A stretch of DNA of 61,314 nt, from positions 1 through 61,314 of the forward strand of contig CAZMKD010000237.1 in assembly GCA_964566575.1 (NCBI GenBank). The letters are read 5' to 3'. The notes beneath the pieces were generated by a model. The model had not been told where the DNA came from. It searched no databases and saw nothing but the letters and a program-made list of their open reading frames with translations. Position numbers and translations under genes: made by a program. Positions 4,614-39,780 of the stretch are shown one piece after another. The DNA comes from an uncultured Verrucomicrobiota bacterium (GTDB lineage Bacteria; Verrucomicrobiota; Verrucomicrobiia; Palsa-1439). How positions within the stretch are numbered: position 1 is the first letter of the stretch; the number at the start of each line of letters is the position of its first letter.

Positions 4614-4621
4614 AGGCAGTC

Positions 4622-4650
4622 ATGCTAACGTCGCGCGCGCGCGCCGACAA
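4622..4650 (-). promoter_or_regulatory. mtnA promoter, near-leaderless
   Basis: TTGTCG-N17-TAGCAT, 8 nt before GTG. Confidence 0.55.
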
Positions 4651-4791
4651 GCCCGTTCAATCGTCCGGGGGATGTCGTACCTAAGTAAACAATCACGCCG
4701 CGCGAACGCGGCTTCCCGGCCTGGGAACTCCCCTGCGGTCGCCCCAGCGCTCATTCCCGGGCGGGACCGAAGACACCCAAAATATCGGTTT

Positions 4792-4820
4792 GCAAAACCC
4801 TTGCTCAGTAAGGCTTTTGC
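4792..4820. repeat. 11-7-11 imperfect palindrome
   Basis: GCAAAACCCTT-GCTCAGT-AAGGCTTTTGC; outer TATCGGT(4783-4789)/ACCGATA(4824-4830). Confidence 0.6.
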
Positions 4821-4944
4821 CGGACCGATATGCCGGCTCACAATCGCGGTTAACCGTCGTCCCTTGGCAGCTTTCCAACCAAACTCCAGTTTTGACTTTC
4901 GCTCCCGAGTAAGGCCGAATACTAATGATAGGCGACGAGAGACT

Positions 4945-5370
4945 ATGCCAGACCTAGGATTACAACCGGGAGAGAGAGTTGTTGAGTTGGCTGCGGTCGT
5001 GCGGACGGCAGCGATTGTGAGTGGTGCTGTTGCTGGAGTTGCTACCACGTGGCTGGTCAGACGGAGTTGGTGGTTTTCTCTAGCAGCTTTCGTCTTGGGC
5101 GCAGTCGCCGGTTTTGTCGTTAGTCAGTTCGTTTCGCGGCTGTACCGTTCAGCCGACGGCCAGACAGTAGTTGCAAGAGTCGGGAGCACTTCATTGCCCG
5201 CTACTATTCCGGCAGGCTTAGCTGGTGGTGTATCGGTCGCCTTGGTGGTCGGCATAGCCGTGATTCTGCTTTTGTCAGCGCAGAGCCGTGCGGTGCCGGT
5301 ACTCGGCACTTCGCTCGGCTGCGGGATTGTGCTCGGCATTATCTTCGCGTGCTTGGCATCGCTTGTATGA
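4945..5370 (+). CDS. membrane protein, integron cassette A
   Basis: Hydrophobic 141-aa ORF between GATAGGC (4927) and an attC site. Confidence 0.75.
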   Translation: MPDLGLQPGERVVELAAVVRTAAIVSGAVAGVATTWLVRRSWWFSLAAFVLGAVAGFVVSQFVSRLYRSADGQTVVARVGSTSLPATIPAGLAGGVSVALVVGIAVILLLSAQSRAVPVLGTSLGCGIVLGIIFACLASLV

Positions 5371-5377
5371 GTGCAGA

Positions 5378-5482
5378 GCCTATCCATGCAGTCGAGCGAA
5401 CCGTGAGCCAGCCGACCGGCCGGGTTGCCGGCGGCGGCGTCAGGGGCGGCTGGCTCGCGTTCGCTCACTTTTATCGTTAGGA
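5378..5482 (+). mobile_element. attC site (cassette A)
   Basis: R'' GCCTATC, L'' TCGAGCGAAC, paired arms GAGCCAGCCG/CGGCTGGCTC, L' TTCGCTCA, R' GTTAGGA; extrahelical bases. Confidence 0.85.
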
Positions 5483-5489
5483 AGCATCT

Positions 5490-5861
5490 ATGAACACACG
5501 CGAACTTTGGTCACGCATTCTGATCACTGTTGGCGGGATCGCCATGCTGGTCGGAGCTCTTGATCCGCTGGAAGGATCGCTAGTTATTCTTCCCGGCAGC
5601 GCCGTCGTGACGCTCGGCACATTCCTAAGCAACGGTAGACGCGGGTTGCTCATTTACTGGATATGGATTTTCATCCTGATAGCAGCCGGGGTGGGCGCGA
5701 TGTTTGCGTTGAGCGCGTTCGGAGGTATTGGCGGACGTAGCGGGCATTCAGTGTGGTGGGGGCTGCTGATCGTGCCTTATCCCGTTGGTTGGATTATGGG
5801 AATCGTCAGTCTCGTGTCTAGGCTGATCGGAACCGTTCGAAACCGCCATGCCGCTTCCTAA
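5490..5861 (+). CDS. membrane protein, integron cassette B
   Basis: 123-aa multi-TM ORF whose TAA stop lies inside the attC R'' box. Confidence 0.8.
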   Translation: MNTRELWSRILITVGGIAMLVGALDPLEGSLVILPGSAVVTLGTFLSNGRRGLLIYWIWIFILIAAGVGAMFALSAFGGIGGRSGHSVWWGLLIVPYPVGWIMGIVSLVSRLIGTVRNRHAAS

Positions 5862-5915
5862 CCATCCGCTGGAGGCAACGCGGCTTCGCCGCGTGCCTCA
5901 GCTTGAGCGTAAGCT
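5856..5915 (+). mobile_element. attC site (cassette B)
   Basis: TCCTAAC-CATCCGC-TGGAGGCAACGCGG-CTTCG-CCGCGTGCCTCA-GCTTGAGC-GTAAGCT; GCTTCCTAAC complements GTTAGGAAGC at 5476. Confidence 0.85.
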
Positions 5916-6032
5916 GAATGCGGCCGGTGCAGCACGGCGCCTCGAAAAAGTTTTGGGAATAACCGCAGTCGGGATCTTTCGTCAATAACCGGCCGGTAAT
6001 TGGATTTCCATGAACGCCGCGTAGCGCTCGGA

Positions 6033-6746
6033 TCATCGATTCACGTGCCCATACGATTCGAGCACCTCGCCATGTTTGCGCACAAACAATGGTTCCGTGA
6101 AGAACATTCGGAAACACTCGCGCAACGTCACCGGCGGACTGACCAGTTGAACCTTGCCTTGCCGGATCGCACGGAAGATGGACGCTTGCGTCGGTTCGGC
6201 GTCCACCAGTGTGTAGTGCCGACCGAACATCCAGAGGTTGTGCGCGTCGGAGTTGGCGATGATTGTCTTGCCGTGTTTGCGCGCGATGGCAACGGCGCGT
6301 CGGTTGAAGAGGTCGAACCATCGCAGATGAATCTGCGCATACTCGACGGCATCGAATACATCGATGTAGCGCTCGAACTCCGGCCCGAGGCTGTGTCCTT
6401 TCGGATACAATGGATGCGGGGCGACCACGAGCAGGTCGTCGCCGCGCTCGCGCTTGTAGGCGCGCAAGTCGTCGAAGCTCTGGAGCCGGTTGGCGTCGCG
6501 TTGCCTGATGTTGTAGAGCAACACGTCGCGCCCGTTGATGTTCCATTCGACGGCGCGGATGAAGAGCAAACCCTTCTGCCGCGCGTAGTCGAAGACGCGC
6601 TCGTCCTCGATCACTTTCTCGTGCAACGTGACCGCAATGGCGGCGTAGCCGAGCTCCACCGCCTTGTCGATCAACTGCACCGCCGTGTAGCGCAGTCCGT
6701 CGTGCGGGTCTTCGCCGGAGTGCATGTGGAGGTCGACCTTGATCAC
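6033..6746 (-). CDS. PHP-domain phosphoesterase
   Basis: VDLHMH, H..VE, VAPHP, ANSDAH motifs; GTG start overlaps addA stop. Confidence 0.85.
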   Translation of the reverse strand: MIKVDLHMHSGEDPHDGLRYTAVQLIDKAVELGYAAIAVTLHEKVIEDERVFDYARQKGLLFIRAVEWNINGRDVLLYNIRQRDANRLQSFDDLRAYKRERGDDLLVVAPHPLYPKGHSLGPEFERYIDVFDAVEYAQIHLRWFDLFNRRAVAIARKHGKTIIANSDAHNLWMFGRHYTLVDAEPTQASIFRAIRQGKVQLVSPPVTLRECFRMFFTEPLFVRKHGEVLESYGHVNR

Positions 6747-9694
6747 AGTTGCACCTGCTCGCTGGTGGCAAGGAAGAACAACACCGACTCCGCGACCTCG
6801 ATGCCGGCCACTTGCTTCAACGCGTCGCAGTAGGCCTGCATTTGCGGCCGGTAGCGCTCGGTCTTCGGCCGCGAGTCGGTTTTGTAATCGACAAGCGTCC
6901 ACCGTTTTCCTTCCCGGAACAACAAATCGATCTTGCCCTCCATCGTCCCGACCGTGAACGGCAACTCGCGGTACACTTCATCGGCTCTTTGCGCGCGCTG
7001 GAGCAACTGCGACTTCAGTGCACGCTCGATCATTTTCCGCGCGTCCTCCGGCAACCCCGTGGCATCCGAGCGCTCCAACGCCTCGTGGACAAGGATGCCG
7101 AATTCCATCGCGCGTTCGCGGAAGATGCCGGTCGGCTCTTCTTCGCGCGGTTCAGCTTCGTGGGCAAGCTTCGAGGGGCTGATGCGGGCGACCGGCTGCG
7201 AGGCGCGCGCCAACAAGGCCGCGCGTTCGGCCTGCCATTGCCGGCGCTTCGCAATGAGTTCATTTGGAGTGCTCCGACTTGTCGGAGCTTTGCCGTGGCT
7301 CTTCACAGCGGCGACAAGTCGCTGCACTCCAAAATCAACTTCGACAAGTTTGCTCGCCTCCGGTCTGATACCCAACAGATCGAGCCGTTCACCATGTTCC
7401 TTGAACCACGGGATAACGAGCCGTTCTTTCGCGCGTGTGGCGGCAACATAGAGCAACCGGATTTCCTCGGCTTCGTCCCGTTTGGCCTGTTCCTTCGTGG
7501 CGTCGTCGAAGCTGGCGGTGCGGTAACCGGCAAAGCGCAGCTCAACGTGACCGGTCGCGCGATTCGTCACGAGTCGCACGCCACTGTCGCTGGACTTGCC
7601 GGCCAGATCGGCGAGCACGACGACTGGAAATTCCAACCCTTTCGACTTGTGCATCGTGAGGAATTGGACGACGTCGGCATTCTCCTCGGTGGACGGCGCC
7701 GGCTCTTCGTCCGCGCCGCCGAGGACGGTGGTGCGGAGTTGCCGGACAAAACCGCGCAGCGAACGCACGCCCGCCACTTCGAGCGATCGGGCGAGGCCGA
7801 GCGCTTTCAACAAATTCGCGACGCTGGCCGGGCCGTCCGGGGCGCACGCAGTAAACGCCTGGCAGATGTACGTGCGGGCAAACACCAATTCGACAAACCC
7901 GGCCACCGAGAGGGCGTGCCGCCGCTCGTGCAGCTCGCGCAGCGAGCCGAGCGCGTCGTTGTGCAAGTAATCGAGTTTGCCGGCGGCCGACGCGAGGAAT
8001 ATCTGCTCGTCGCTCCAACCAAACAGCGGCGAGCGCAGGACGGCGACGAGGTTGAGCTTGTCATTGGGGTTGTCGAGTGCACAGAGCAACGAAACCAGCG
8101 TCTGGATTTCCTGTCGTTGATAGTACCCGCGTCCGCCGACGATGCGGAACGGCACGCCGTGTTCGATGAACGCATCCTCGAAAATCTCCACGCCGGTAAA
8201 GCTGCGGAACAACAGCGCCACGTCGCCGAACTTGAACTTACCGGCGTCGACCCCTTCCCGGAGATGGCGCGCGATCGCCGCCGCTTCGGCTTGCCGAACT
8301 TCCGTGATCTTTTCCGCGAACACTTTCGGGCGCAGCAACGTGACGCGCGGCTCATCGATCTGGAACTTCGCTTCGAGCGCGATGTAGTCTGGTTGGTAAT
8401 CACCGTCGGCTGGTTTCTGGATCAATTTCGCGAATACCTCGTTCACCCAATCGAGGATCGTCGACTGGCTGCGGAAGTTTTGCTGGAATTGCAGCACCTG
8501 TCCCATCTTCTCGATCGCGCGACGTGTGTGGACGTACATCTCGATGTCAGCCCGGCGAAAACCGTAGATGCTCTGCTTCGGGTCGCCGACGATGAACAGT
8601 TTACCCGGCACGTCGCCGGCGAGCGCGAGCACGATCTCGACTTGCACGGGGTCGGTGTCCTGAAATTCGTCCACGAGCAAAAACCGGTATCGCTCCTGCA
8701 GTTGCCGGCGCACGTCGGCGTTGTCGCGGAGAAGATCGCGCGCCTTCTCCAGCAGGTCATCGAAGTCGAGCACGGCTTTCTGGCGTTTGACCTGTTGAAA
8801 GTGCGCGACAAATCCCTGCAACCACCCGGCCAGCTCAACGAGGAAATTATGCTCCACCACCGCCGTCAACTCCGCGATAGCCGACTTGAGTTCCTTGATC
8901 GCCGCCTTCGCCTCGCGGAACACATCCTCGGAATCAAAATCGGCTTTGCGCTTTGGCTCAGTCACCTCCAGCGCGCCCAGCACAGCGGCTACGCGATCTT
9001 CTGACGCTCGTTCCAACAGTGGCAATGTCTCGCGCAAGGCCCTTGCCCGTTCATAGAAGTTCTCGCCGCGCGCGACGCAATGCTTCAGCGGTGATTCGAG
9101 CGCCCCGGCAATCTCGTTCAAGCGACGCAACACTTCCCGGACTCGTACCGGCTCACGCCCCGGCCACTTCAGTATTTGCGCCCGGTGATCGACCAGTTGC
9201 ACCGCCAGCTCGCGCAACGCCTCGACGCGCACCTCGCGCACCAATGCCTGCCGCAACGCAGCCGGATTCTTCGACAGCTCCCCTTCGAGCCATTGCGTCC
9301 ACGCCTCGTCGAGCAACAACTCGCGTTGCATCGCGTCCGCCACGGCAAATTGCGGGTCGACGACCGCCTCGACCGGCCGCTCCCGCAGCACCGACGCGCA
9401 GAACGAATGGATCGTCGTGATCGAAGCGCGTTCGAGATCGCGCAACGCCTCGGCGAGTTTCTTGCCGGCCAGACTCTTCTCCAATTCCTCGCGCAACCGG
9501 ACTTTCAAATCGCCAGCCGCCTTCTCGGTAAACGTGATGGCGACAATCTCGTGCAACCGGGCCCGATCCTTCTTCACCGCTTCGAGAATGCGCGACACCA
9601 GCGCCGTCGTCTTGCCGGTGCCCGCCGCCGCCTCCACGAAGAACGTCGTGTCCAGCTTTTCTCTGGCGTCCTTCCGCGCAACGGCGTCGCTCAT
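6743..9694 (-). CDS. addA: UvrD-family helicase/nuclease, AddA-like
   Basis: AAAGTGKT, VDEFQDT, VGDPKQSIYGFR, TMHKSKGLEF, LLYVAATRA, C-terminal IDL..DYK nuclease. Confidence 0.88.
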   Translation of the reverse strand: MSDAVARKDAREKLDTTFFVEAAAGTGKTTALVSRILEAVKKDRARLHEIVAITFTEKAAGDLKVRLREELEKSLAGKKLAEALRDLERASITTIHSFCASVLRERPVEAVVDPQFAVADAMQRELLLDEAWTQWLEGELSKNPAALRQALVREVRVEALRELAVQLVDHRAQILKWPGREPVRVREVLRRLNEIAGALESPLKHCVARGENFYERARALRETLPLLERASEDRVAAVLGALEVTEPKRKADFDSEDVFREAKAAIKELKSAIAELTAVVEHNFLVELAGWLQGFVAHFQQVKRQKAVLDFDDLLEKARDLLRDNADVRRQLQERYRFLLVDEFQDTDPVQVEIVLALAGDVPGKLFIVGDPKQSIYGFRRADIEMYVHTRRAIEKMGQVLQFQQNFRSQSTILDWVNEVFAKLIQKPADGDYQPDYIALEAKFQIDEPRVTLLRPKVFAEKITEVRQAEAAAIARHLREGVDAGKFKFGDVALLFRSFTGVEIFEDAFIEHGVPFRIVGGRGYYQRQEIQTLVSLLCALDNPNDKLNLVAVLRSPLFGWSDEQIFLASAAGKLDYLHNDALGSLRELHERRHALSVAGFVELVFARTYICQAFTACAPDGPASVANLLKALGLARSLEVAGVRSLRGFVRQLRTTVLGGADEEPAPSTEENADVVQFLTMHKSKGLEFPVVVLADLAGKSSDSGVRLVTNRATGHVELRFAGYRTASFDDATKEQAKRDEAEEIRLLYVAATRAKERLVIPWFKEHGERLDLLGIRPEASKLVEVDFGVQRLVAAVKSHGKAPTSRSTPNELIAKRRQWQAERAALLARASQPVARISPSKLAHEAEPREEEPTGIFRERAMEFGILVHEALERSDATGLPEDARKMIERALKSQLLQRAQRADEVYRELPFTVGTMEGKIDLLFREGKRWTLVDYKTDSRPKTERYRPQMQAYCDALKQVAGIEVAESVLFFLATSEQVQL

Positions 9695-12381
9695 TTCACG
9701 GTCTCCTTGATTTCGTGAAACGTTGTAATCCGCGCGTCGCCGAGTTTGCGCGCTGCGAGTTTCAGGATGCCGTTGCCACAGATCGGACGGAAGTCGCACT
9801 GCCGGCAATTTTCCGGTGTCGCGTGCTGCGCGAACACGCCGTCGCGAATCATGCCGGCGGCGGTGTCGAGTAGCTTGTTCACATCATCGCGTCGCGCTTC
9901 AAGTGCGCCCCGCGAGAAATGGATGTCCCGGTATCCACCTCGCAGCGTGAAGAACAAGTAGCTCGCCGCCTCGACACTTACGTCCGGCAAGAGCTTCTCG
10001 GCCGCCAGCAAGTACAGCGGCAATTGCAACGCTTCGCCGCCGGCCAGCGCGTCGTCGCGCAGCCCGCGCGGCAGCTTGCCGGTCTTGTAATCGAGCACGC
10101 GGGCGCGGCGTCTGTCAGCGCTGAGGTCAATGCGATCGATTGTGCCGCGCAATCGCACGGGCGCGGCGACCGCGAGGCCGTCGAATTTCTTTTCAAATTC
10201 CACCGGTCGCCAGTCCTTTCCGCGGTCGCGCGCGACGAACGCGGCGAGTTCGTCGAGAATGATTTCCTTCTTGATCGCCCAAACGGCCGGATACCCGGTC
10301 ACGCCTTCGCGTTCGAACCGCTCGAAATGTTTCTCCGTCACCGCCACCAGTTCGCCGCCCCGGTAGTAGTCTTCGAGAATCGCGTGATAAAGCGAGCCGA
10401 GGTCCTTTGACTCGATGACGACCGTGGCTTCCGGTTCCTCCCAGCGCTCGATGCCGAGCACGTGCTTTTGAAAATAGTAAAACGGACAACCGAAGAAATC
10501 CTCCAGCGACGTCGCGCTAATGACGAGTTTTTCCAGCCCGAACCGCTCGCGCAACAGTTGCCGGGCGTCCGTGCCGTCGATCATGCCGTCGTACCGGGTC
10601 AGCGCACGCTCGCCCCAGCGTTGCCGGTAGGCTTGGACGCCGGTCCGCAATGTCAGCGAAATCTCCGCGAGATAGTCGTCGTTCACGACTTGCAATGCCT
10701 TCAAATCCAACTCGCCCTCGTCGAGCGGCGGCTCACCGGTAGTTTTCAGGACGAGTTTGTCGAGCGCCTTGAAGTCCTTCGCGCCGGTATGCTCCAGCAA
10801 CAGGAACGACGGTACGCGCGGACGCGCTGTGGCCGGCTCGATGCGCGGATAGCTGAGCACGAGTTGCTCGCGCGCCGTCGCCCGGGCGAGATCGAAGAGT
10901 AAGTGTTCCTCGTCGTACCCGCGTTGTTTCAGCGGCAGATCGGGGCTGATCTGGCGGCGTTCGTCGTCGAGCAGCAGCGGGTCTTCCCGGATGACGCGGG
11001 GGAAACTCTTCTCGACCAAGCCGAGCACCATGACAAAGGGAAAACTCAGTCCGCGCGCGCTCATCACGTCACCAACAAAGATGCCGCCGCCTTGAAACTT
11101 GCCGGTCGGTTCGCGCTCGGCTTCGATGGCCTTCTGGCAAAACTCCGCGAACGTCTCAAAGGTCACCGGCGATTCGAAAGCGTCCAGTTCCGCGAGCGCG
11201 CTGATCGCTTCGCTGACGCCGAGATGGCTGCCTCCGAGCGCGCGAAACGCGGCGAGCACCGGCTCGATAAACTTGGTCCACTGGCCCTTGGCCGGGATGG
11301 CTTCAGCGAGCGTAAAGATTTTGGTGATGAACTCAGATAACTCACGGTCGGGAGGGCGCAGCCGGCGCTGCCACTGTGACTGGCCGGCGACGATGCCGAG
11401 TTCAACCGTGCGCGCGTCCCACGGCGAATGCGGCCCGATGTGGCAGGCCAGTTCCATCATCGTGGCGCGGCTGTAGTTCGATCGGATGACTTCGAGCAGC
11501 AGCCAAAGCAGCTTCGCGTCCGGGTGTTCGGTGAGCGGACGTCCGCCGCGGAAGTAAATCGGCAAACCAAGCGCACCGGCAGTGTCTCGGATGATCGCGT
11601 CGTATTGCTCGCGGCTGCGGCAGAGAATCGCGCAGTCGTTGAACGTCTTGCCGGTCTCGGCGACGTATCGGAGCACGGCACGGAACGCTTCGCGGACTTC
11701 GGCAGGTTCGCCGGGACAGGAGATGATGGTTGACGGAACTGGCTGTGGGCGCGACGAAGCGACAGGGCGCGACTGAAACCAATCGAGGAGCGGTTGTGAG
11801 AATTCCGCGTGCTCGACCCGAGGGAAGAAGATCGCCGCTGGGTTGAGGCGTTCGACGAAGTCTTTCTGGATCATTGTGAGATCGTAGAAGCCGTAAAGAA
11901 ATACCGGAGATTGGAGATTAGAGACCGCCGATTGGCGAAAGTCGTGGTCGTCGAGCCATTGGCGGTACGTTGTATATGCCCTGGCGAGTTCTCGAAGTTT
12001 CTTGGTCTTGCCGGTGAATCGGCTGATGCCGGCTTGTTCGAGGTCTTTGAAAGTTTCGAGCAGCGCGGTGGCGAAGCCGGGGGTGTCGTTGACCGGAGCG
12101 AAGTAATCTTCGCAGGATTTTGCGAGTCGCCGACAGAGCAGTTCAAGGCCGAAACGCGGTGCAGCCGGCATCTGGAGCAGATCGTCGAGGGTCGTGAAAC
12201 GGAGATTGGCGTGCGGCACGAGCGTGCGTTGGAGATGCAAGCCGAGCAGTCGCGTGGGGACGACGACAGTCAGTGGTGCAAGCGGGCCGCGCGTTTTCTT
12301 GTAGGCAGTTATCTCGTCCGCGAGTGCGGCTTCGAGGTGCGGCTGAAACGCGCCGAGGTAGAGTTTGCGTGGCTGGGGCAT
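9691..12381 (-). CDS. addB: AddB-like PD-(D/E)xK nuclease with Fe-S cysteines
   Basis: SARGLSF, SATSLEDFFGCPF, GTIDRID..DYKTG, CRQCDFRPIC. Confidence 0.85.
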   Translation of the reverse strand: MPQPRKLYLGAFQPHLEAALADEITAYKKTRGPLAPLTVVVPTRLLGLHLQRTLVPHANLRFTTLDDLLQMPAAPRFGLELLCRRLAKSCEDYFAPVNDTPGFATALLETFKDLEQAGISRFTGKTKKLRELARAYTTYRQWLDDHDFRQSAVSNLQSPVFLYGFYDLTMIQKDFVERLNPAAIFFPRVEHAEFSQPLLDWFQSRPVASSRPQPVPSTIISCPGEPAEVREAFRAVLRYVAETGKTFNDCAILCRSREQYDAIIRDTAGALGLPIYFRGGRPLTEHPDAKLLWLLLEVIRSNYSRATMMELACHIGPHSPWDARTVELGIVAGQSQWQRRLRPPDRELSEFITKIFTLAEAIPAKGQWTKFIEPVLAAFRALGGSHLGVSEAISALAELDAFESPVTFETFAEFCQKAIEAEREPTGKFQGGGIFVGDVMSARGLSFPFVMVLGLVEKSFPRVIREDPLLLDDERRQISPDLPLKQRGYDEEHLLFDLARATAREQLVLSYPRIEPATARPRVPSFLLLEHTGAKDFKALDKLVLKTTGEPPLDEGELDLKALQVVNDDYLAEISLTLRTGVQAYRQRWGERALTRYDGMIDGTDARQLLRERFGLEKLVISATSLEDFFGCPFYYFQKHVLGIERWEEPEATVVIESKDLGSLYHAILEDYYRGGELVAVTEKHFERFEREGVTGYPAVWAIKKEIILDELAAFVARDRGKDWRPVEFEKKFDGLAVAAPVRLRGTIDRIDLSADRRRARVLDYKTGKLPRGLRDDALAGGEALQLPLYLLAAEKLLPDVSVEAASYLFFTLRGGYRDIHFSRGALEARRDDVNKLLDTAAGMIRDGVFAQHATPENCRQCDFRPICGNGILKLAARKLGDARITTFHEIKETVK

Positions 12382-12405
12382 ACCTGATAAATGTTGCGGC
12401 GTCCG

Positions 12406-13518: not shown

Positions 13519-13538
13519 GCGGTGCATTATTTCCGCCG

Positions 13539-15941: not shown

Positions 15942-16024
15942 CAGAAAGTCTTTACCGTGGCCTCCTCCCTTCCATCTCTCGCCTATCCGCGCCCGTCCGC
16001 CGCGTTCGACTGACGCTAAAATCG

Positions 16025-17050
16025 TCACGTTCCGCCGAGCTGTCTGCCCATCACTTCCACTAGCGGGCGCAGTTCGTTCATCAATTGTGCAAACTGCATC
16101 GGCTTGAGCTGCTGGCCACCGTCACTCAACGCCGTGGCTGGATCCGGGTGAACTTCGATGAGCAAGCCGTCCGCACCAACAGCGACGGCAGCGCGAGCGA
16201 GCGGAATAATCATATCAGCCCGACCGGCGGCGTGACTGGGATCGACAAACACCGGCAAATGAGTTTCCTTTTTCGCCACGGCGACCGCACTCAGGTCGAG
16301 CGTATTCCGGCAGGCGTGTTCGAAGGTACGGATGCCGCGTTCGCAGAGGATGACCTGGTTGTTGCCGTGGACGCAGATGTATTCGGCGGCGAGCAACCAT
16401 TCGTCCACGAGGCCGGACACGCCTCGTTTCAGCAGAATCGGCTTACCGGACGCAGCGGCGACGGCGAGGAGCGGGACGTTTTGCGCGTTGCGCGCGCCGA
16501 TCTGCAAAACGTCGGCAACCTCGGCAACCATCTCGACATCCTGGGGCGACATGACCTCGGTGACGATCGGCAATCCCGTGGCTGCGCGCGCCTCGCGGAG
16601 CAGTTCGAGGCCAGCGCGGCCCAAGCCCTGAAAGTCGTACGGTGAAGTGCGCGGCTTGAATGCGCCGCCACGAAAGAGCGTTGCGCCGCTCGCCTTCACC
16701 GCTTTCGCGGTCGCCAAGGTTTGCTCGCGGTTTTCGACGGAGCACGGCCCGGCCACGACATGAAAGGCGCTCCCGCCGATCTTGCAGCCAGCCACGTCGA
16801 AAACGGTGTCGTGCTGTTGGTATTGCCGGCTCACGAGTTTATACTTCTTTTGAACGGGCGTGACGGTCTCCACCTGCGGCAGGACGATGAGCGATTCGAG
16901 GGTGTGATGGTTGCGTTCATCGCCCACGCATGCGATGACAGTCCGCTCGACGCCCCGGATGAGCTTTGGCTCGTAGCCAAACTTCTTGACGGCCTCGCAC
17001 ACTTGCTGGATTTCCGGTTCCGGGCTGCCGATTTTCAGGACGATGATCAT
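16025..17050 (-). CDS. aroF: DAHP synthase type I-beta with N-terminal regulatory domain
   Basis: AGPCSVE, RGGAFKPRTSPYDFQG, QIGARN, LLKRG, DPSH, IEVHP. Confidence 0.93.
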   Translation of the reverse strand: MIIVLKIGSPEPEIQQVCEAVKKFGYEPKLIRGVERTVIACVGDERNHHTLESLIVLPQVETVTPVQKKYKLVSRQYQQHDTVFDVAGCKIGGSAFHVVAGPCSVENREQTLATAKAVKASGATLFRGGAFKPRTSPYDFQGLGRAGLELLREARAATGLPIVTEVMSPQDVEMVAEVADVLQIGARNAQNVPLLAVAAASGKPILLKRGVSGLVDEWLLAAEYICVHGNNQVILCERGIRTFEHACRNTLDLSAVAVAKKETHLPVFVDPSHAAGRADMIIPLARAAVAVGADGLLIEVHPDPATALSDGGQQLKPMQFAQLMNELRPLVEVMGRQLGGT

Positions 17051-17068
17051 GGCGTTCGCTCCTTCAAC

Positions 17069-17101
17069 AAAAAAACCGCCCCGCATCGCTGCGGGACGGT
17101 T
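17069..17101 (-). terminator. intrinsic attenuator terminator upstream of aroF
   Basis: AACCGTCCCGCA-GCGA-TGCGGGGCGGTT 12-bp stem (one G-U), GNRA loop, followed by a T run. Confidence 0.85.
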
Positions 17102-17120
17102 GACATGTGCGTCGTTGGCG

Positions 17121-17204
17121 TCAACACAGCGCCCGCAGCGCGCGGCTAAAGTAGAAAAACCAGAACCACGCTTGCGTGTTGCAGTGTTGACGACGGTCGT
17201 TCAT
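17121..17204 (-). CDS. aroF leader peptide, 27 aa
   Basis: MNDRRQHCNTQAWFWFFYFSRALRALC; seven consecutive aromatic codons. Confidence 0.85.
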   Translation of the reverse strand: MNDRRQHCNTQAWFWFFYFSRALRALC

Positions 17205-17244
17205 TGCGAGACGAAGACTAGCAGTTTGCGGCCGGTAAGTCAAC

Positions 17245-18585
17245 CTAGCCGCTAACAGTCGCGCCAAAGTAACCATCCCAGGCGAGGTCGATGACCTCTT
17301 TTGAGAGCCGAATGGTTTCGCGGTTGTACTTGCAGACTTCGATGGCCCGGTCGATGAGGTCGCGTGGTTCGCAGGCTTTCGGTTCTCGGTTTTCCTTGCC
17401 GTATCGTAGTTCGAGGTGCGCGAGCAGTCCCGGCTCGATCGCGAGGCCGCGTTTGCGCGCGTAAGTGGCGAAGATTTGCGCGTAGGTTTGGGGACCGGGC
17501 GGCATGACGTAGAGCCGGTAGCCCATGCGCCGCAGAAAGGCTTCATCGGCGAGGTCGGACACAGTGAGGTTAGTGGCAAAGACGATGACCTGCTCGAATG
17601 GCACTTGGACTTTCTTGCCGGTGCCGAGGGTGAGGTAATCGATGCGGCTCTCCAACGGGATGATCCACCGGTTGAGCAACTCCGCCGCGGAGCACCGCTG
17701 CCGGCCGAGGTCGTCGACGACCAACACGCCGCCGTTGGACTTGAGCTGGAACGGCGCTTCGTAAAATCGTTGCGAGGCATTGCCCGTCAGTTCCATACTA
17801 TCGATCGTGAGTTCGCCGCCCACGACGACCAACGGTGGTTTGATCTTGATCCAGCGCTTGTCGTAGTCACTGGCCGCGACTTTCACCGGCCGGTGCGTGT
17901 GGGGGTCGAACAGCCGGATGACTTGTCCGTCCACTTCGATGGCGTGCGGAATCCACAGGTCGCCTTGGATGCCATCGACTAGCGCCCGCGCCATCGCGGT
18001 CTTGCCGTTGCCGGATGGTCCACTGAGAAACAGGCTACGCCCCGAACTGGCCACGAGACCAAGAGTTTGTTTGGCCCCATCGGTGAGCACCAGCTCGTTC
18101 ATCGCGAACTCCAGAGCCGAGCGTGTGGTCGGCATGCGCCCGCGAATCTGTGCCGTGAGACGCTGCGTGTATTCATTAAGCGCGACGGGCGCCGGCCCGC
18201 AGTAGCTGCTGACCGCCATCACTCGGGCAACCTCCGTCCAGCCCCGCTCAAGCATTGCGTACCGGTGGTTGTGGGTGCCGACAACTCCTTTGATTTCGAT
18301 GAGCCGGTCGCGATTGAGCCGTTGCAGGAGTGTGTCGGTCACCATCAGGCCCAGATGCAAACGCGACGCGATTTCTGCGCTCGTGGCGGCCGGCTCGAGC
18401 GCCATCGCCTTCAGCGCGAGGTCGCCGAGCAGGATCGGAGAAAGGCCGAGCGCTTCCAATGTCTGCGAAAAGGCCGGCATGAAGGCGTCGCCGGTCTCGA
18501 CCAATAGTGTCGAGTCCGTCCCGAAGACATCGTCTTTGGGCATGTAAGTGATTGGTGCCGCAGTCGGTGTTTGGACGGCAATCAT
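17245..18585 (-). CDS. AAA+ family ATPase of unknown function with N-terminal HTH-like region
   Basis: GPSGNGKT Walker A, LVVDDLGRQ Walker B, FATN, LRR arginine finger. Confidence 0.8.
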   Translation of the reverse strand: MIAVQTPTAAPITYMPKDDVFGTDSTLLVETGDAFMPAFSQTLEALGLSPILLGDLALKAMALEPAATSAEIASRLHLGLMVTDTLLQRLNRDRLIEIKGVVGTHNHRYAMLERGWTEVARVMAVSSYCGPAPVALNEYTQRLTAQIRGRMPTTRSALEFAMNELVLTDGAKQTLGLVASSGRSLFLSGPSGNGKTAMARALVDGIQGDLWIPHAIEVDGQVIRLFDPHTHRPVKVAASDYDKRWIKIKPPLVVVGGELTIDSMELTGNASQRFYEAPFQLKSNGGVLVVDDLGRQRCSAAELLNRWIIPLESRIDYLTLGTGKKVQVPFEQVIVFATNLTVSDLADEAFLRRMGYRLYVMPPGPQTYAQIFATYARKRGLAIEPGLLAHLELRYGKENREPKACEPRDLIDRAIEVCKYNRETIRLSKEVIDLAWDGYFGATVSG

Positions 18586-18642
18586 ATGTACTTCCTAGTC
18601 TAAATTAGCGGCTTCCATGCCAAAACCGAGATTCTCTCGGAC

Positions 18643-18671
18643 TTGCAACACCCTGCCGGTTTCCCTAGACT
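18643..18671 (+). promoter_or_regulatory. leaderless promoter of LysM gene
   Basis: TTGCAA-N17-TAGACT-N6-ATG. Confidence 0.65.
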
Positions 18672-18677
18672 CGCCGC

Positions 18678-19199
18678 ATGAAACAACTGCTTCTCGCCTC
18701 GGGTGTTGCACTTTTTTGCGCGTTGGCACCGTCGGCCACCGCCCAGCAGCCTGATCCTCACCAACTCGGCATCCTCGACGAAAAGGTCAGCCGCCTCAAT
18801 GCGCAGATTGAGGACCTGCAATTCCGCCAGCAGCAGACGCAGAAAGACCTGGAGCGGATACAGACCGAGTTGCAGGAACTGCGCCGCGCCGCCGGCGGGG
18901 TCGCGTCGAGCGATCTGAAAGCGCTCGAAGATCGCATCGTCGCCGTCGATGCTGCCCGGCAAAAAGACAAACAAGCAATCATTGATCAACTCGCCAAAGA
19001 ACTGGCTTCGATCGGTTCATCCAAATCGAGCAAGACAGAGTTGCCGACGACCGGAACAAAGGAGCACATCGTTCAGAAAGGCGAAACGCTGACGACCATC
19101 GCAAAGGCCGCCGGAGTCACAGTCGCCGACCTGAAGAAAGCCAACAACCTGACCGGCGACGACATCAAAGTCGGTCAGAAGCTCGTCATTCCGCGGTAG
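18678..19199 (+). CDS. secreted coiled-coil LysM-domain protein
   Basis: Signal peptide, coiled coil, HIVQKGETLTTIAK..GVTVADLKKANNL..IKVGQKL. Confidence 0.9.
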   Translation: MKQLLLASGVALFCALAPSATAQQPDPHQLGILDEKVSRLNAQIEDLQFRQQQTQKDLERIQTELQELRRAAGGVASSDLKALEDRIVAVDAARQKDKQAIIDQLAKELASIGSSKSSKTELPTTGTKEHIVQKGETLTTIAKAAGVTVADLKKANNLTGDDIKVGQKLVIPR

Positions 19200-22100
19200 C
19201 AGCCCATCGCTCGCGGCGTGTGCCATTCTTCGCCGCCATTTTCTCCGTGTCCACCTTTAGCCACACGGAGTCTTCACCGAGGATGGCTTCCAACTCTTGC
19301 ACGAGTTTCTCGGTCGGGGCGACGGCGAAATAGTCGTTGGCTTCGAGGAACACGAGTTTGCCGTCGGGGTAGATGAAGCAGAACATTACCGGCACACTGC
19401 CCTTGGCGCTGCGCAGCACGTCGTGCACGCGCCCGAGCACCTCCTCGCTCGTGCTCGCGGCCGAGAGACGGATGTGCATCGCCTTCGTGAAATTCTTCGG
19501 CACGTCTGTCAGCGGGATGATCCGGTCAGCGTAAATCTTGGGTTTGTCCTCGCGCAAGTTCACAGAGCCGCACACGAAAATCGCGGCGTCCGCTTTCAAG
19601 TGCATCACGCACTTCGCGTAGGCTTCCGGAAAGACCAACACTTCGACTGAACCGTCGAGGTCCTCGACCGTAAGGATGGCCATCGGTTTGCCCTGCTTGG
19701 TCGTCTTCGGCTGCAGCTTGCTGATGATGCCGCCGATTCGCGTCATTTGCCCGTCCTGCAACGACGCGAGCTGCGTGCTCGACGCCAGCTCATACCGGCG
19801 TAGAATCTCGGCGTACTCACTCAGCGGATGGCCGGTGACGTAGAAGCCGAGCAACTCTTTCTCAAATGCCAGCATCTCGCTCTGTGACCACTCCACCTCC
19901 GGCATCTTGCCAGTCGCTTGCTTGCGGGCGTTGACCGGCGCGACATCGAACAATGCAGCTTGCCCGCGTTCCCGGTCGCGCTGCACGGCCGCCGCGCGAT
20001 TCAACTGGTAGTCAATCTCAGCAAAGACTTGCGCTCGTGCCGGGTCGAGCGAATCGAACGCGCCGCACTTGACGAGACATTCAAACACCTTGCGGTTGAC
20101 GACGCGCCCGTCGACCCGGTCGCAGAAATCGGCGAATGATTGGAATTTACCGGCCGCCTCGCGGACGGCGATAATGTTTTGGACGGCGATCTCGCCGACG
20201 TTTTTGATCGCGGCGAGGCCGAAGCGGATCCGGCCCTTGTCGACCGTGAAGCGCACGCCGCTCTCGTTGATGTCGGGCGCGAGCACTTCGATGCCCATGC
20301 GTTTGCACTCGTTGATAAAGAACTGGATTTTCTCGGTATTCGCCAGCTCGTTGGACAACGACGCGGCCATGAACTCAACTGGGTAGTTTGCCTTGAGCCA
20401 TGCGGTCTGGTAGGAGACGACGCCGTAGGCGGCGCTGTGCGATTTGTTAAAACCGTACCCGGCGAACTTCGCGAGGGTACCGAAAATCTTTTCCGCTTTG
20501 GCGCGGGGGATCTTGTTCTTGTCGTGGCACCCTTTGATGAAGATCTCGCGTTGCTTCTCCATTTCCTCGGGCTTCTTCTTGCCCATCGCACGGCGCAACA
20601 CATCGGCGCCGCCGAGTGTGTAACCAGCCAGCACGCTGGTGCTCTGCATCACCTGCTCCTGATAGACGAACACACCGAACGTCTCTTTCAGAATCGGTTC
20701 AAGCAGCGGATGGTCGTACTCGACTTTGATCTTCCCGTGTTTGCGGTTGACGTAGTCGTCGAGCATGTTCATCGGCCCGGGGCGAAACAACGCGATCAGC
20801 GCGATGATCACGTCCACCGAATCCACCCCGATGCGCCGGCACAGGTCGCGCATACCACTCGACTCAAGCTGGAACACGCCGGCCGTATTCGCCTTCGCCA
20901 GCATGTCGAACGTCTTCGCATCGGTCATCGGGATCTTATCCATGTCGAGGCGCTGGCCGGTGGTCTGCTCGACGAGGTCGAGCGCGTCCTTGATGACCGT
21001 GAGCGTTTTCAGTCCCAGGAAGTCCATCTTCAACAACCCGAGGTCGCCGAGCGGATTCATCGAGTACTGCGTGACGATTTCGTTCGAATTTGTGCCGGTG
21101 GTGAGCGGCACGATATTGGTGAGCGGCTCCGCGCCGATGACCACGCCGTCGGCATGGGTCGAGGCGTTGCGGGCGAGGCCTTCGAGCGTCTTGCCGTTGT
21201 CGATGATGCGGCGGACGATGTCCTCGTTCTTGTACGCCGCCTTCAACTCCGGGTTCATCTCCAGGGCCTTGTCCAACGTCATCCCGAGGTCCGGCGGGAT
21301 CATCTTGGCGATCCGGTCACACTCGCCGTAACTGAGACCGAGCACGCGGCCGACGTCGCGCACGACCATCTTCGCGCCAAGTGTGCCGAACGTGATAATT
21401 TGTGCCACGTGATCGTCGCCGTATTTCTTGCGGACGTAGTCGATGACTTCGGGCCGCCGGTTGTAGCAGAAATCCATGTCGATGTCCGGCGGTGAAATGC
21501 GCTCGGGATTCAGGAAGCGCTCGAACAGCAAATTGTACCGGAGCGGATCGATGTCGGTGATGCGCAGCAAGTACGCCACGACGCTGCCGGCCGCGCTGCC
21601 GCGGCCCGGGCCGACCGGGATGCCGTGGTTCTTGGCGAAGTCCACGAAGTCCCAAACGATGAGGAAGTAGCTGGCGAACCCGGTCTTCTCGATGACCTTC
21701 AGCTCGAACTCAACGCGCTCCACGATTGATTTTTCGCGAGCGTCTTTCGGTTGTTTCCATACGATGCCATACCGCCGGCGCAGTCCGTCTTCGACCAATT
21801 GATGGAGGTACTTCTCCCGGCTCAAGCCGTCGGGCGGATGATAGACCGGGAAGCGCAGCTTGCCGAATTCGAGCCGGAGATTACACTTCTCGGCAACGGC
21901 GAGCGTATTCGTCACCGCCTCCGGCACCTCCGCGAACAACTCGTGCATCTCCTCCGGCGTCCGCAGGTAGAACTGTTCAGCCACGTACCGCATCCGTTTC
22001 TCGTCGGCCACGAGCGACTGCGTTTGCAGGCAGATGAGGCAATCGTGCGCCTCCCAGTGTTCCCGCTCGACATAGTGCACGTCGTTGGTCGCCACCAGCG

Positions 22101-22707
22101 GCAGGTTAAATTCCTTCGCCCAATCCATGAGCACCCGATTGACCTTCTGCTGTTCTGGTATGCCGTGGTTCTGCAGCTCGACGTAAAAGTCGCCGGGCTC
22201 GAAGATGTGACGGTATTCGTCAAGCGCGGCTTTCGCTTCGTTGAGTCGATCGTCCTTGATTCGGTTCGGCACTTCCCCCTTCAGACACGATGTAAAGCCA
22301 ATCAGCCCTTTCGAGTGTTGCGCGAGAATTTCCTTGTCAATGCGCGGTTTGTAGTAAAACCCCTCGAGATGCGCCGAACTGATGAGCTTGACCAGATTCT
22401 TGTACCCGGTCTCGTCCTTCGCCAACAAGATCAGATGAAACGCCGCATCGCGCGCGCTGCTGGATTTCTTTTCGAGCCGCGACCCCGGCGCGATGTACGA
22501 TTCGCAACCGATGATCGGCTTCAACCCCGCCTCCGACGCCGTCTTGTAGAACTCAACCGCTCCGAACATGTTGCCGTGATCGGTCATCGCGATGGCCGGC
22601 ATCTTCGAGGCGTGCGCCTTGTCCACCGCGTCCGAAATCCGGCACGCGCCATCGAGCAGGCTGTACTCGGTATGCAAATGTAGGTGAACGAAGTCAGAAT
22701 GTTTCAT
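19186..22707 (-). CDS. dnaE: DNA polymerase III alpha subunit
   Basis: HLHLHTEYSLLDG PHP domain, GRGSAAGS, PDIDMDF, KMDFLGL, YGFNKSH; start moved from 23001 to 22707. Confidence 0.97.
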   Translation of the reverse strand: MKHSDFVHLHLHTEYSLLDGACRISDAVDKAHASKMPAIAMTDHGNMFGAVEFYKTASEAGLKPIIGCESYIAPGSRLEKKSSSARDAAFHLILLAKDETGYKNLVKLISSAHLEGFYYKPRIDKEILAQHSKGLIGFTSCLKGEVPNRIKDDRLNEAKAALDEYRHIFEPGDFYVELQNHGIPEQQKVNRVLMDWAKEFNLPLVATNDVHYVEREHWEAHDCLICLQTQSLVADEKRMRYVAEQFYLRTPEEMHELFAEVPEAVTNTLAVAEKCNLRLEFGKLRFPVYHPPDGLSREKYLHQLVEDGLRRRYGIVWKQPKDAREKSIVERVEFELKVIEKTGFASYFLIVWDFVDFAKNHGIPVGPGRGSAAGSVVAYLLRITDIDPLRYNLLFERFLNPERISPPDIDMDFCYNRRPEVIDYVRKKYGDDHVAQIITFGTLGAKMVVRDVGRVLGLSYGECDRIAKMIPPDLGMTLDKALEMNPELKAAYKNEDIVRRIIDNGKTLEGLARNASTHADGVVIGAEPLTNIVPLTTGTNSNEIVTQYSMNPLGDLGLLKMDFLGLKTLTVIKDALDLVEQTTGQRLDMDKIPMTDAKTFDMLAKANTAGVFQLESSGMRDLCRRIGVDSVDVIIALIALFRPGPMNMLDDYVNRKHGKIKVEYDHPLLEPILKETFGVFVYQEQVMQSTSVLAGYTLGGADVLRRAMGKKKPEEMEKQREIFIKGCHDKNKIPRAKAEKIFGTLAKFAGYGFNKSHSAAYGVVSYQTAWLKANYPVEFMAASLSNELANTEKIQFFINECKRMGIEVLAPDINESGVRFTVDKGRIRFGLAAIKNVGEIAVQNIIAVREAAGKFQSFADFCDRVDGRVVNRKVFECLVKCGAFDSLDPARAQVFAEIDYQLNRAAAVQRDRERGQAALFDVAPVNARKQATGKMPEVEWSQSEMLAFEKELLGFYVTGHPLSEYAEILRRYELASSTQLASLQDGQMTRIGGIISKLQPKTTKQGKPMAILTVEDLDGSVEVLVFPEAYAKCVMHLKADAAIFVCGSVNLREDKPKIYADRIIPLTDVPKNFTKAMHIRLSAASTSEEVLGRVHDVLRSAKGSVPVMFCFIYPDGKLVFLEANDYFAVAPTEKLVQELEAILGEDSVWLKVDTEKMAAKNGTRRERWAATAE

Positions 22708-22876
22708 GCGCGCGCCGACGCCACTGTAGATGTGCGCCGAAACGCAATCAAGCCTTACCGGAAAAGTCCACCGGTAAGCCTGCAAAAAAACTGCCCGGCT
22801 ACATTGGTGCTGACGTTCGCCGTGCCGTGAGCCGAGTCCGACGAGACGGCGCGATGTAGTATTCGCGGCAAATGTT

Positions 22877-22948
22877 GGTAGAGCGCGACCGCCGGGCGCA
22901 CCGTTTGGTCTGGAAACGGACGGATGGCCCGGCGGGTCCGTCCCTACC
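22877..22948. repeat. GTAG-type REP doublet
   Basis: GGTAG...CTACC ends, internal GGACGGA/TCCGTCC hairpin. Confidence 0.55.
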
Positions 22949-23114
22949 GGGAAGGAGCAGACGCCGCACGCGACCGTTCCGCATGAAACGCTGGCTGGCA
23001 ATCAGGTTGACGCGCTTTGCCCTTCGTCCTAATCTGTCGCCGTGGAGAACGTTAAATGCACATTTGTCTTTTGCCGCTGACTTTGTCCCATTACTAATGT
23101 TCGAGGAAAATACC

Positions 23115-23609
23115 ATGACGGGTTCCATGCCTGGGATAGTAAGCCGGAGAACAGCATTGGTGCTGAACGCGGTTATCGTCGTTGCTTACGTTACCATTGG
23201 CGTGCTCGCCCCAACGCCTTGGATAATGTTTGGCGGTTTCCTTCTGCTGGCCGTTGCGATTCGGTGCGCGACACTTTGGTGGATTTCGAGCTCTGTGCAA
23301 GATACTGAGGGGGGCTCGCCACACTTTGCCCTCCGCATAGTGTTTTTGAATCTTTTTCTCGGTCTGCTTTTCGTCACTGCTGTTATTGGTCTTCTCTGGT
23401 GGCTCGGCCACTATTGGCTTTCTGGCATCAAGGTCATCGTCCCCTTGGTCGCTGTGTTCGTTGCATACAAGTCAACGTTTCCGGTGATTTCATGGAGTTC
23501 GCGATCGAAGGACGACAGAATCCTCGAACCAGACGGTGCAGCGAACGGGAGCCAGCCGATTCGCTCAGAGACGAATACAACGTCATCGGCGGCTGGCTCC
23601 CGTCGCTGA
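23115..23609 (+). CDS. membrane protein, integron cassette C
   Basis: GAGG RBS; four hydrophobic segments; reading frame continues through the attC. Confidence 0.7.
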   Translation: MTGSMPGIVSRRTALVLNAVIVVAYVTIGVLAPTPWIMFGGFLLLAVAIRCATLWWISSSVQDTEGGSPHFALRIVFLNLFLGLLFVTAVIGLLWWLGHYWLSGIKVIVPLVAVFVAYKSTFPVISWSSRSKDDRILEPDGAANGSQPIRSETNTTSSAAGSRR

Positions 23610-23623
23610 CCTTTACGTTGGGC
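23523..23623 (+). mobile_element. attC site (cassette C)
   Basis: R'' CTCGAAC (complement GTTCGAG at 23099), L'' TGCAGCGAAC, L' GTCGCTGA, R' GTTGGGC. Confidence 0.88.
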
Positions 23624-23637
23624 GTTCTATCTACGCG

Positions 23638-24195
23638 ATGATAAGATACATTCAACGTAACAAGGAGTGGATTTTTTCGGGAATAGGAGTCGCCATATTG
23701 TTGCTTCTCCTCTCGTTGTTTAGGTTTCTTCTCACATCCACACGTCCCGAATCACGAACGCCTGCGGCACTCGGCTCAAAGGCGTTAGCGCATTCTTCAA
23801 CATCCTCTCCGTCGCAGTCGCAATTCTCGCCAATAACGCTCGATGAGGTGCTTCAAGCGTCATCCGATTCGTCACGCACTGAGCTTCAGAAGGAAGAATT
23901 TCGGCGGAGATATGAAGGTAAGATAGTTGAGTGGGATGCTTAGGTGGACAGCGTGTCGAGCCAGGGGTCGCGGGCCGATGAAGAAATTGTTTTGGTATGG
24001 CATTCCCCACATACGAAGCCTTCCCCGTCGAGCGATATTTTTTTCGCTGCAACCTTTCCGGCCAGTTACAAAGAGAGCCTGCTCGACCTTCATCCCGGCG
24101 ACACGATTACGGTTCGTGGCACACTTCAATTTGTGAACAATTCATCGCATAACCCGAGGCTGGTTAAGTGCGAGCTGATACAACTTCGAACGTAA
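23638..24195 (+). pseudogene. membrane-anchored OB-fold-like protein interrupted by in-frame TAG (23941-23943), cassette D
   Basis: RYEGKIVEWDA*VDSVS...LHPGDTITVRG reads in one frame. Confidence 0.65.
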
Positions 24196-24200
24196 TGAAC

Positions 24201-24264
24201 CCGCAACGGCAATGCGCTTCAGCGAACAGGACTTACGCCCTGTCGCTGAGCTTTTACGGAATGC
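24201..24264 (+). mobile_element. degenerate attC site (cassette D)
   Basis: TTCAGCGAACAGG/CCTGTCGCTGA arms intact; R'' spacing longer by 3 nt and R' eroded. Confidence 0.6.
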
Positions 24265-24422
24265 GGCCGAGAACGACACCGCGCTTTGAAAAAGTTTAAA
24301 AAACAACGATCCAACCCCCGTGAATTCTGTTTCCGGTTCTTAGCAACAATTTCCCAGTCAACTCCGAAAACGTTCGGGGTTGAATCCGGCACGCCTCGTG
24401 CCGTATAAGTTCCAACTGGAAC

Positions 24423-31292: not shown

Positions 31293-31333
31293 AGCGCGTA
31301 AGAAACTACCGACGCGCCCCGCTCGGCGCAACC

Positions 31334-35774: not shown

Positions 35775-35827
35775 TTGTCTAGTTTGTCATTCTGAGTGCA
35801 GCGAAGAATCTCTGTTGGTCGTGTCTA

Positions 35828-36463: not shown

Positions 36464-36550
36464 GAATTCTCGTTCTTCAGGCGATTGATCGATAATCAAC
36501 GCGCTGCGCAACTGTAGTCGGCGATAGACGACCCAGCAGGATTGCCGCGT

Positions 36551-39778: not shown

Positions 39779-39780
39779 GC

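Follow-up and report, generated by a model that had tools for sequence, protein, structure and literature searches.

Why should two small arrays of gene cassettes, lying 17.1 kb apart beside different housekeeping genes and holding unrelated cassettes, be set between the same two short sequences? The question is raised by contig CAZMKD010000237.1 of an uncultured Verrucomicrobiota bacterium (assembly GCA_964566575.1), the whole of which, 61,314 nt, is the window analysed here. Verrucomicrobia are known to carry integrons. Judged by sequence, both arrays fit the published definition of clustered attC sites that lack an integron-integrase (CALINs) (PMC4889954), each having two attC sites within 4 kb and no integrase gene having been found on the 61-kb contig. 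The frame that surrounds them on both sides is real and, for separate CALINs, unusual, and unrelated cassettes have been joined to it at the same base. The two copies of the frame consist of four segments:

4882..4927, + strand: left conserved segment 1 (L-CS1), ending in TACTAATG, junction base G4927; 31 of 46 positions identical with L-CS2
5916..5953, + strand: right conserved segment 1 (R-CS1), GAATGCGGCCG-N17-GAAAAAGTTT; no significant fold and no attC-model score
23054..23099, + strand: left conserved segment 2 (L-CS2), ending in TACTAATG, junction base G23099
24259..24297, + strand: right conserved segment 2 (R-CS2), GAATGCGGCCG-N18-GAAAAAGTTT

The initial annotation of this DNA had both arrays start at TACTAATG and end in GAATGCGGCCG-N17/18-GAAAAAGTTT with similar spacers, and these claims were confirmed. 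In the window TACTAATG occurs exactly twice, at 4920-4927 and 23092-23099, both times on the + strand (0.19 expected; 0 of 100 shuffles held two or more), and the right motif is found at 5916-5953 and 24259-24297 and nowhere else (0.00 expected), the random expectations being taken from shuffles; the spacers CACGGCGCCT and CACCGCGCTT were verified. Over 39 columns with one gap the right flanks share 31 identities (79%), a score equalled in 0 of 500 shuffles, and at both loci the similarity stops abruptly, with zero extension past the GTTT end of GAAAAAGTTT. The left similarity is longer than the initial annotation had seen: beyond the 8-mer, 23 of the 38 further upstream positions match, a level reached by 4 of 20,000 random window segments (p ~2e-4), and overall the left conserved segments are 67% identical. 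The half-motifs taken individually, with one mismatch allowed, occur at chance level, which might be held in favour of a chance resemblance between unrelated array flanks; the significance lies in the combination, however, and the zero expectation of the combined motif, the alignment statistics of the flanks and the position of the motifs at the exact array boundaries effectively refute that explanation. Chance resemblance of the flanks is excluded.

More familiar identities for the flanking segments were also tried and rejected. They are not mutual inverted repeats: aligned with the reverse-complemented right segment, the left one reaches only the mean score of shuffles. Read as degenerate attC sites, they give 2.6 bits or nothing with R1, a home-made covariance model of the four attC sites of the two arrays. 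No sigma-70 promoters or terminators were detected in the flanks, and manual checks for extracytoplasmic-function (ECF), sigma-54 and Bacteroidetes-type promoter spacing were unconvincing. A conserved peptide across the right segment is ruled out by the 1-nt spacer indel, which shifts the frame of the second block.

The left junction is the more informative of the two. After TACTAATG, array 1 continues with ATAGGCGACGAGAGACT-ATG and array 2 with TTCGAGGAAAATACC-ATG, and the internal cassette starts, TTAGGAAGCATCT-ATG and TTGGGCGTTCTATCTACGCG-ATG, resemble these starts after the junction G. The cassette 5' ends read ATAGGCG... and TTCGAGG... after the junction G, and TTAGGAA... and TTGGGCG... 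internally, with ~12-17 nt to the ATG. Because the left cassette starts look like internal ones, the junction G is the crossover base in both arrays, and the left junctions read G/AT and G/TT (the slash marks the crossover). In both cases at hand (n = 2) the unrelated first cassettes, 1a and 2a, start directly after TACTAATG, as they would at an attI site with a fixed crossover. Since unrelated first cassettes are joined to a homologous left frame at the same base, at least two independent site-specific joinings have taken place at TACTAATG/, and this holds for any history: for pads that were filled independently, for an array that changed after it had been copied, and for a long ancestor whose two descendants were trimmed differently. 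These observations argue that the left junction is a reused, attI-like crossover point.

How the frame came to lie where it does can be followed in part at locus 1, where three features are involved:

3627..4613, - strand: mtnA, an IF-2B family methylthioribose-1-phosphate isomerase gene, divergent from array 1
4613..6060, no strand: lineage-specific block, in which the frame with array 1 stands between a left arm of 269 nt and a right arm of 107 nt
6033..6725, - strand: PHP-domain phosphoesterase gene (P0130; product of 230 aa), convergent with array 1 and differing from the genes of relatives in the last 5-6 codons

In the sister lineage represented by contig L015 (JGI), whose PHP protein is 88% identical, the order is an addA-like helicase gene, the PHP gene and mtnA, with the PHP stop overlapping the mtnA start; the same PHP protein is encoded in Logan contig L016. 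By blastn, L015 3636-4320 corresponds to window 6745-6061 and L015 4330-5367 to window 4612-3575, and between the two matching stretches lie 9 nt in L015 versus 1448 nt in the window. As the two genes overlap in the sister lineage, the state with 4613-6060 is the derived one, produced by insertion at an operon junction, and as the locus 1 frame is absent from that lineage, its flanks are not resident DNA that was hit by a cassette. The initial annotation's argument that these are not random attG insertions is upheld by this result together with the homology of the flanks. No target duplication was seen at 4613/6060, and composition profiles did not delimit the boundaries of the insert. A different 4.7-kb insert occupies the same PHP/mtnA junction in contig L017 (6717-11437); it holds two genes, the product of one being a protein of 1037 aa in which Peptidase_M23 and beta-propeller/PD40 domains are present, and a duplicate of ~150 nt of the PHP 3' end adjoins mtnA there. 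The C-termini of the PHP proteins vary among relatives, in line with inserts, and from these comparisons the junction looks like a recurrent integration hotspot. Two structures were also noted in the arms of the locus 1 block: a long imperfect hairpin, ATATCGGTTTGCAAAACC...GGCTTTTGCCGGACCGATAT, in the left arm (4783-4832), and in the right arm, just downstream of the PHP gene, a 20-nt palindrome, CAATAACCGGCCGGTAATTG (5983-6002).

Within the frame each locus carries two open reading frames (ORFs) on the + strand, each followed by an attC hairpin site, the two attC sites lying within 1.2 kb:

4945..5370, + strand: cassette 1a ORF, 141 aa, a predicted membrane protein of no Pfam family; the cassette begins at A4928 (ATAGGC...)
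5378..5482, + strand: attC 1a, 105 nt, R'' GCCTATC, R' GTTAGGA; bottom-strand fold -31 kcal/mol, z -3.5
5490..5861, + strand: cassette 1b ORF, 123 aa, a small membrane protein of a widespread uncharacterised family
5856..5915, + strand: attC 1b, 60 nt, R'' TCCTAAC overlapping the stop codon, R' G at 5909 followed by TAAGCT; z -3.0
23115..23609, + strand: cassette 2a ORF, 164 aa, a predicted membrane protein of no Pfam family, its 3' end overlapping attC 2a
23523..23623, + strand: attC 2a, 101 nt, R'' CTCGAAC, R' GTTGGGC; fold -32.3 kcal/mol, z -6.2
23638..24195, + strand: cassette 2b ORF, a single gene of ~185 aa broken by an in-frame TAG at 23941-23943
24201..24264, + strand: attC 2b, 64 nt, R'' CCGCAAC, R' G at 24258 with R-CS2 directly after it; z -2.75

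The attC sites were called from bottom-strand folding, alignment and model R1, which detects no further attC in the window beyond its four sites; in an Rfam scan the sole match was a tRNA. With the consensus CCTAAC-CATGCGGT-GAGCGAAC for R'', the unpaired central spacer and L'', the four sites form one family. Their bottom strands fold with z from -2.75 to -6.2, and the anatomy is that of attC sites: a stem with an extrahelical base, a variable terminal structure and lengths (60-105 nt) inside the range of ~57-141 nt. In all four a bulged A (bottom-strand T) follows GCGA/GGCA of the L''/L' stem at the same place, the loop is variable and the distance from L' to the R' G is constant at 8-9 nt. 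The imperfect inverted core sites conform to R'' RYYYAAC and R' GTTRRRY, and the terminal sites retain the G alone (GTAAGCT and GGAATGC), as would be expected for the last site of an array. Each unit holds one promoterless ORF, in the same orientation and ending at or in R''; no sigma-70-like promoter was found ahead of the cassette ORFs. The four ORFs are mutually unrelated, as ORF comparison showed and as the initial annotation had stated for the two arrays, and none reaches a Pfam threshold, the one sub-threshold match being that of cassette 1a (E 0.005, 17 bits versus a cut-off of 33). The family of 1b comprises 358 cluster representatives at E<=1e-3. Two Logan contigs of the same strain (SRR9952630), L002 (position 1, window 23582) and L018 (its end, at ~5881), both break inside attC sites, and the first base of L002 is A where the window has G at 23582; this mismatch hints at a branch of the assembly graph, that is, at another copy or variant of attC 2a in the sample.

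The cassettes also behave as such elsewhere, as far as 2b is concerned. Its TAG leaves halves of 101 aa and 83 aa, which are both spanned by the homologs P0121-P0128 (178-198 aa), and occurs in the independent assembly L002 as well; it is probably a real nonsense mutation, making 2b either a pseudogene or, on the same sequence, a gene expressed by read-through. Model R1 detects independent attC sites in contigs L009 and L019, right behind homologs of 2b (23.4, 21 and 17.1 bits). In L009, a 4.04-Mb contig, the homolog has visible cassette boundaries (GTTAGGC and GTTAGAC) and an attC match immediately after the gene; in L019 it is one of three successive cassettes with an attC match behind each; and in L011-L013 it adjoins ychF. 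Across the 2b loci an alignment can be made of the gene's 3' end and of the 5' half of the attC, attC 2b being orthologous to the L009 and L019 sites. With at least four genomic contexts and an alignable attC, comparison of these loci therefore identifies 2b as a mobile cassette, one that has moved as a unit. For cassettes 1b and 2a, exact-protein look-ups for other contexts returned no record.

Two of these comparison contigs hold features of their own. Downstream of the 2b homolog, L011 (10634-13100; also L012) carries three modules, namely two PIN-domain genes, each preceded by a small ORF (toxin-antitoxin-like), and one pair of small ORFs, separated by ~90-nt repeats from near 10634, 11465, 12083 and 13030 that read as if copied from the 3' end of the neighbouring ABC/SMC-type ATPase gene (possibly UvrA-like). 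The pattern suggests serial site-specific integration into a gene 3' end by a non-integron system. At L019 2403-2455 the end of the ENA contig is Illumina adapter (AGATCGGAAGAGCACACGTCTGAACTCCAGTCAC), and its last attC is cut by this sequencing artefact.

Each array is divergent from a housekeeping gene on the minus strand, as the initial annotation had it, mtnA at locus 1 and dnaE at locus 2, where the neighbours are the following:

19186..22706, - strand: dnaE (DNA polymerase III alpha), divergent from array 2, its true start being the ATG at 22706
24423..25754, + strand: gene for an amino-acid acetyltransferase of the N-acetylglutamate synthase type, downstream of array 2

The promoter region of the acetyltransferase gene (~24360-24422) is conserved in relatives. 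A relative with conserved synteny, as an empty-site comparison at this locus would require, was not found: upstream of the acetyltransferase gene, L003 and L005-L007 carry other genes, and L014 (96% identity) is rearranged or chimeric here. The two genes mtnA and dnaE occupy the position that intI would take beside attI and array in a complete integron. That the arrays are integrase-free, another statement of the initial annotation, agrees with the searches of the contig: no Pfam match to a tyrosine recombinase (Phage_integrase) was obtained for most of its long ORFs; tblastn of the whole 61 kb with an approximate IntI1 sequence as query gave no match; and the contig yielded neither a transposase gene nor a recombinase gene.

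What, then, is the frame? The reading that we rank first, as a tentative one, is that these are two CALINs in a Verrucomicrobiota chromosome, each within a copy of one short frame (left segment ~46 nt, right segment 38/39 nt), whose left junction would serve as a crossover point of the attI-like kind. The folded attC of circular cassettes would be joined to it by an integron integrase, either supplied transiently or encoded at another place in the genome; new cassettes would enter at TACTAATG/, and the right segment would stay as the distal remainder of the original site. This reading takes the first place because separate joinings at TACTAATG/ are the functional signature of an attI-type site; that an integrase recognizes the junction, that one exists in trans and how the frame reached the two loci are matters of inference. 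Rather more doubtful is the general claim that Verrucomicrobiota carry dispersed integrase-less attI-type docking sites of ~85 bp, an 'In0 without intI', which one trans-acting integrase loads beside housekeeping genes.

The attI-like reading is kept tentative by a series of points that weigh against it. The frame is known in two copies only, and no further or empty one was found in the 61-kb contig, in 185,579 GTDB species-representative genomes, in JGI metagenomes, in IMG/VR or among the PLSDB plasmids; these scans of the collections covered exact matches, and since the source genome lies outside them and its own two copies were not returned, their negative outcome is weak evidence. IMG/VR gave zero matches for the 3' motif and zero for the left motif, and neither whole array was matched in PLSDB. 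The exact 3' motif was matched on one genome contig, inside a coding sequence of a Desulfovibrionaceae metagenome-assembled genome, and on one metagenome contig, inside a coding sequence just upstream of a tryptophan-operon-like gene run; both are read as chance. The right junctions differ by 6 nt, array 1 reading G/TAAGCT before its right segment and array 2 G/ with the segment directly after. Rebuilt empty sites would read TACTAATG/TAAGCTGAATGCGG (GTA) and TACTAATG/GAATGCGG (GGA), triplets at odds both with the G/TT of known attI sites and with the GWT that attG sites show (10.1101/2022.09.11.507474); the right half of a G/TT triplet is not what is kept after the last attC. No segment of the frame folds significantly into a hairpin by fold z-score, and the frame, which has no inverted-repeat character, bears no similarity to attC model R1 and shows no recognisable integrase-binding architecture. 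The locus 1 block is ~370 nt larger than the frame, with arms that are not shared with locus 2, and the broken 2b gene may mean that array 2 is decaying instead of active. The initial annotation's repeated attI-like landing pad is thus left with the joining of unrelated cassettes at one base in its favour, but with only two copies, no empty site, non-canonical triplets and the right-hand offset on the other side; its expectation of further filled or empty copies was disappointed in the contig and in the exact-match scans, which by its own terms tells in part against it.

Other histories have to be weighed against the same facts. An ancestral array might have been copied or translocated with its flanks, these having no site function, and have lost and gained cassettes later, the right segment being left over from an older cassette or attC of which most was deleted. 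The frame copies have diverged (67% on the left, 79% on the right) like old paralogs; in each array the first attC is long, the GAGCCAGCCG/CGGCTGGCTC inner stem being common to the two long sites, and the second is short; the TAAGCT after the R' G of array 1 resembles a cassette start (TTRRRY, with one change); and pseudogene 2b indicates decay. The right segment also weakly resembles, in either orientation, some stretches of the attC that follows the 2b homolog in L019, although with 148 of 20,000 natural-sequence controls, uncorrected for multiple tests, this is not significant and may serve as a lead only, and the segment obtains no attC-model score. Nor are attC sites in the same position of the two arrays closer to each other (0.69 and 0.54) than are cross pairs (0.56-0.62). 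Purely passive inheritance fails to account for the unrelated first cassettes because swapping the first cassette at the same base still needs a site-specific event at TACTAATG/, and we regard this history as unlikely. That the whole arrays are paralogs was rejected separately, the ORFs being unrelated and attC identity being independent of position.

An ordinary short dispersed repeat of ~85 nt that happens to offer a good attG-type site could likewise have received cassettes twice, independently and with no evolved integron function. Short dispersed repeats are abundant in this genome, attG insertion is efficient and makes low sequence demands, and two-cassette CALINs are the commonest class (1362 of 2961) (10.1101/2022.09.11.507474); yet in 61 kb there are zero uninterrupted copies of the frame, while other repeat families recur many times, the junction triplets misfit GWT, and both of the known copies are filled, at the same base. 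We consider this explanation improbable. Less probable again is that the frame represents the ends of a non-autonomous mobile element of ~1.1-1.25 kb, moved by a non-IntI recombinase or a transposase with the cassettes as cargo, after the manner of integron mobilization units or of integrons borne by transposons. The abrupt stop of the right homology at ...GAAAAAGTTT in both loci does look like the edge of an element, an operon was demonstrably interrupted by the insertion at locus 1, and the different insert of L017 shows that the PHP/mtnA region accepts mobile DNA. Such an element, however, would here have no terminal inverted repeats, no complementarity of its ends, no recognisable target duplication, no transposase or recombinase gene found on the contig and no other copy in the collections searched, and the locus 1 insertion exceeds the shared ends by 269 nt and 107 nt. 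The attI-like reading accordingly keeps its place ahead of these histories, with the reservations given above.

The contig also carries core genes, among them those for tRNA-Asn, an LptF/LptG-family permease, 3-deoxy-D-arabino-heptulosonate 7-phosphate (DAHP) synthase, nuo and obg besides mtnA, dnaE and the N-acetylglutamate-synthase-type acetyltransferase gene; a two-component system and a two-gene helicase-nuclease pair, read as addAB-type, are also present. Homologs of the flanking genes carry the labels Verrucomicrobiota, Verrucomicrobiia or Verrucomicrobiae. Beside the nuo operon, a HEPN-domain ORF (30533-31138, - strand) with a small overlapping upstream ORF looks like a HEPN/MNT-type toxin-antitoxin pair (region 30533-31331). 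GC-rich palindromic repeats of ~27-40 nt (GTCAYYCTGAGCGNAGCGAAGRRTCTC) lie between genes of the nuo operon (window 34210-47580) in both orientations and often as facing pairs, examples being 35786-35812, 39695-39721, 44869-44895 and 47489-47515 on the + strand and 37749-37775, 39751-39777 and 47537-47563 on the - strand; the family looks like a dispersed repeat of the repetitive extragenic palindromic (REP) type. A REP-like hairpin, ACGGACGG..CCCGGCGGGTCCGTCCCTACC, stands upstream of dnaE (22915-22950), and a near-identical element is found at L003 9660-9692 (also L004 13-26), upstream of the relative's acetyltransferase gene and next to a different neighbour gene. A 12-mer shared near the mtnA and dnaE starts, GCGCGCGCCGAC, has E = 0.2 and was taken as chance.

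A conserved frame bears on the origin and activity of CALINs. They have been discussed as remnants left by integrase loss, as products of rearrangement and as secondary-site insertions, and most of them have no integrase remnant (PMC4889954); together with single attC sites they outnumber complete integrons (10.1101/2022.09.11.507474). If the attI-like reading is true, cassette capture would be directed to defined satellite sites served in trans, and at least some CALINs would be active satellite platforms instead of debris or random attG hits, which would change how cassette reservoirs are counted and how the expression of cassettes beside core genes is viewed. The frame is a short, concrete DNA site that can be tested with a non-proteobacterial integrase. 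If it is inherited baggage only, the two loci are ordinary small CALINs.

Compared with known systems, the two loci agree with CALINs in their two attC sites per locus within a short distance, their promoterless cassettes in one orientation and the lack of any intI found on the contig, over at least 17 kb to either side; they differ in that separate arrays in one genome share homologous sequence on both sides. The literature searched does not describe a genome in which separate CALINs have both flanks in common, in agreement with the initial annotation, which knew of no description, and one may exist outside that literature. Cassettes inserted into genomes at attG sites, or found there as single attC sites with no integrase (SALINs), likewise lie outside any integron and can build small arrays (10.1101/2022.09.11.507474), and the left junctions G/AT and G/TT would suit attG sites, which require only GWT (Loot et al., 10.1101/2022.09.11.507474). 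Whereas attG targets are resident and mutually unrelated, the flanks here are homologous over ~85 nt and non-resident at locus 1, and the right junctions read G/TA and G/GA. Also reminiscent of integron mobilization units is a cassette array that has short conserved sequences on either side and occurs in more than one place. In these, and in other integrons bracketed by miniature inverted-repeat transposable elements (MITEs), the brackets are inverted-repeat MITEs with target duplications; here, in contrast, the left and right ends show no relation in one orientation or the other, and neither terminal inverted repeats nor a target duplication mark them as MITE or transposon brackets. The likeness to class 1 integrons, with their 5' and 3' conserved segments (5'-CS and 3'-CS), lies in the variable cassettes held between a conserved entry segment on the left and a conserved distal remainder on the right. 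Unlike in class 1 integrons, the left segment holds no intI and no recognisable cassette promoter (Pc), the segments are of ~46 and 39 nt, the crossover triplet is not GTT, and the arrangement is present twice in one chromosome, each time beside a housekeeping gene.

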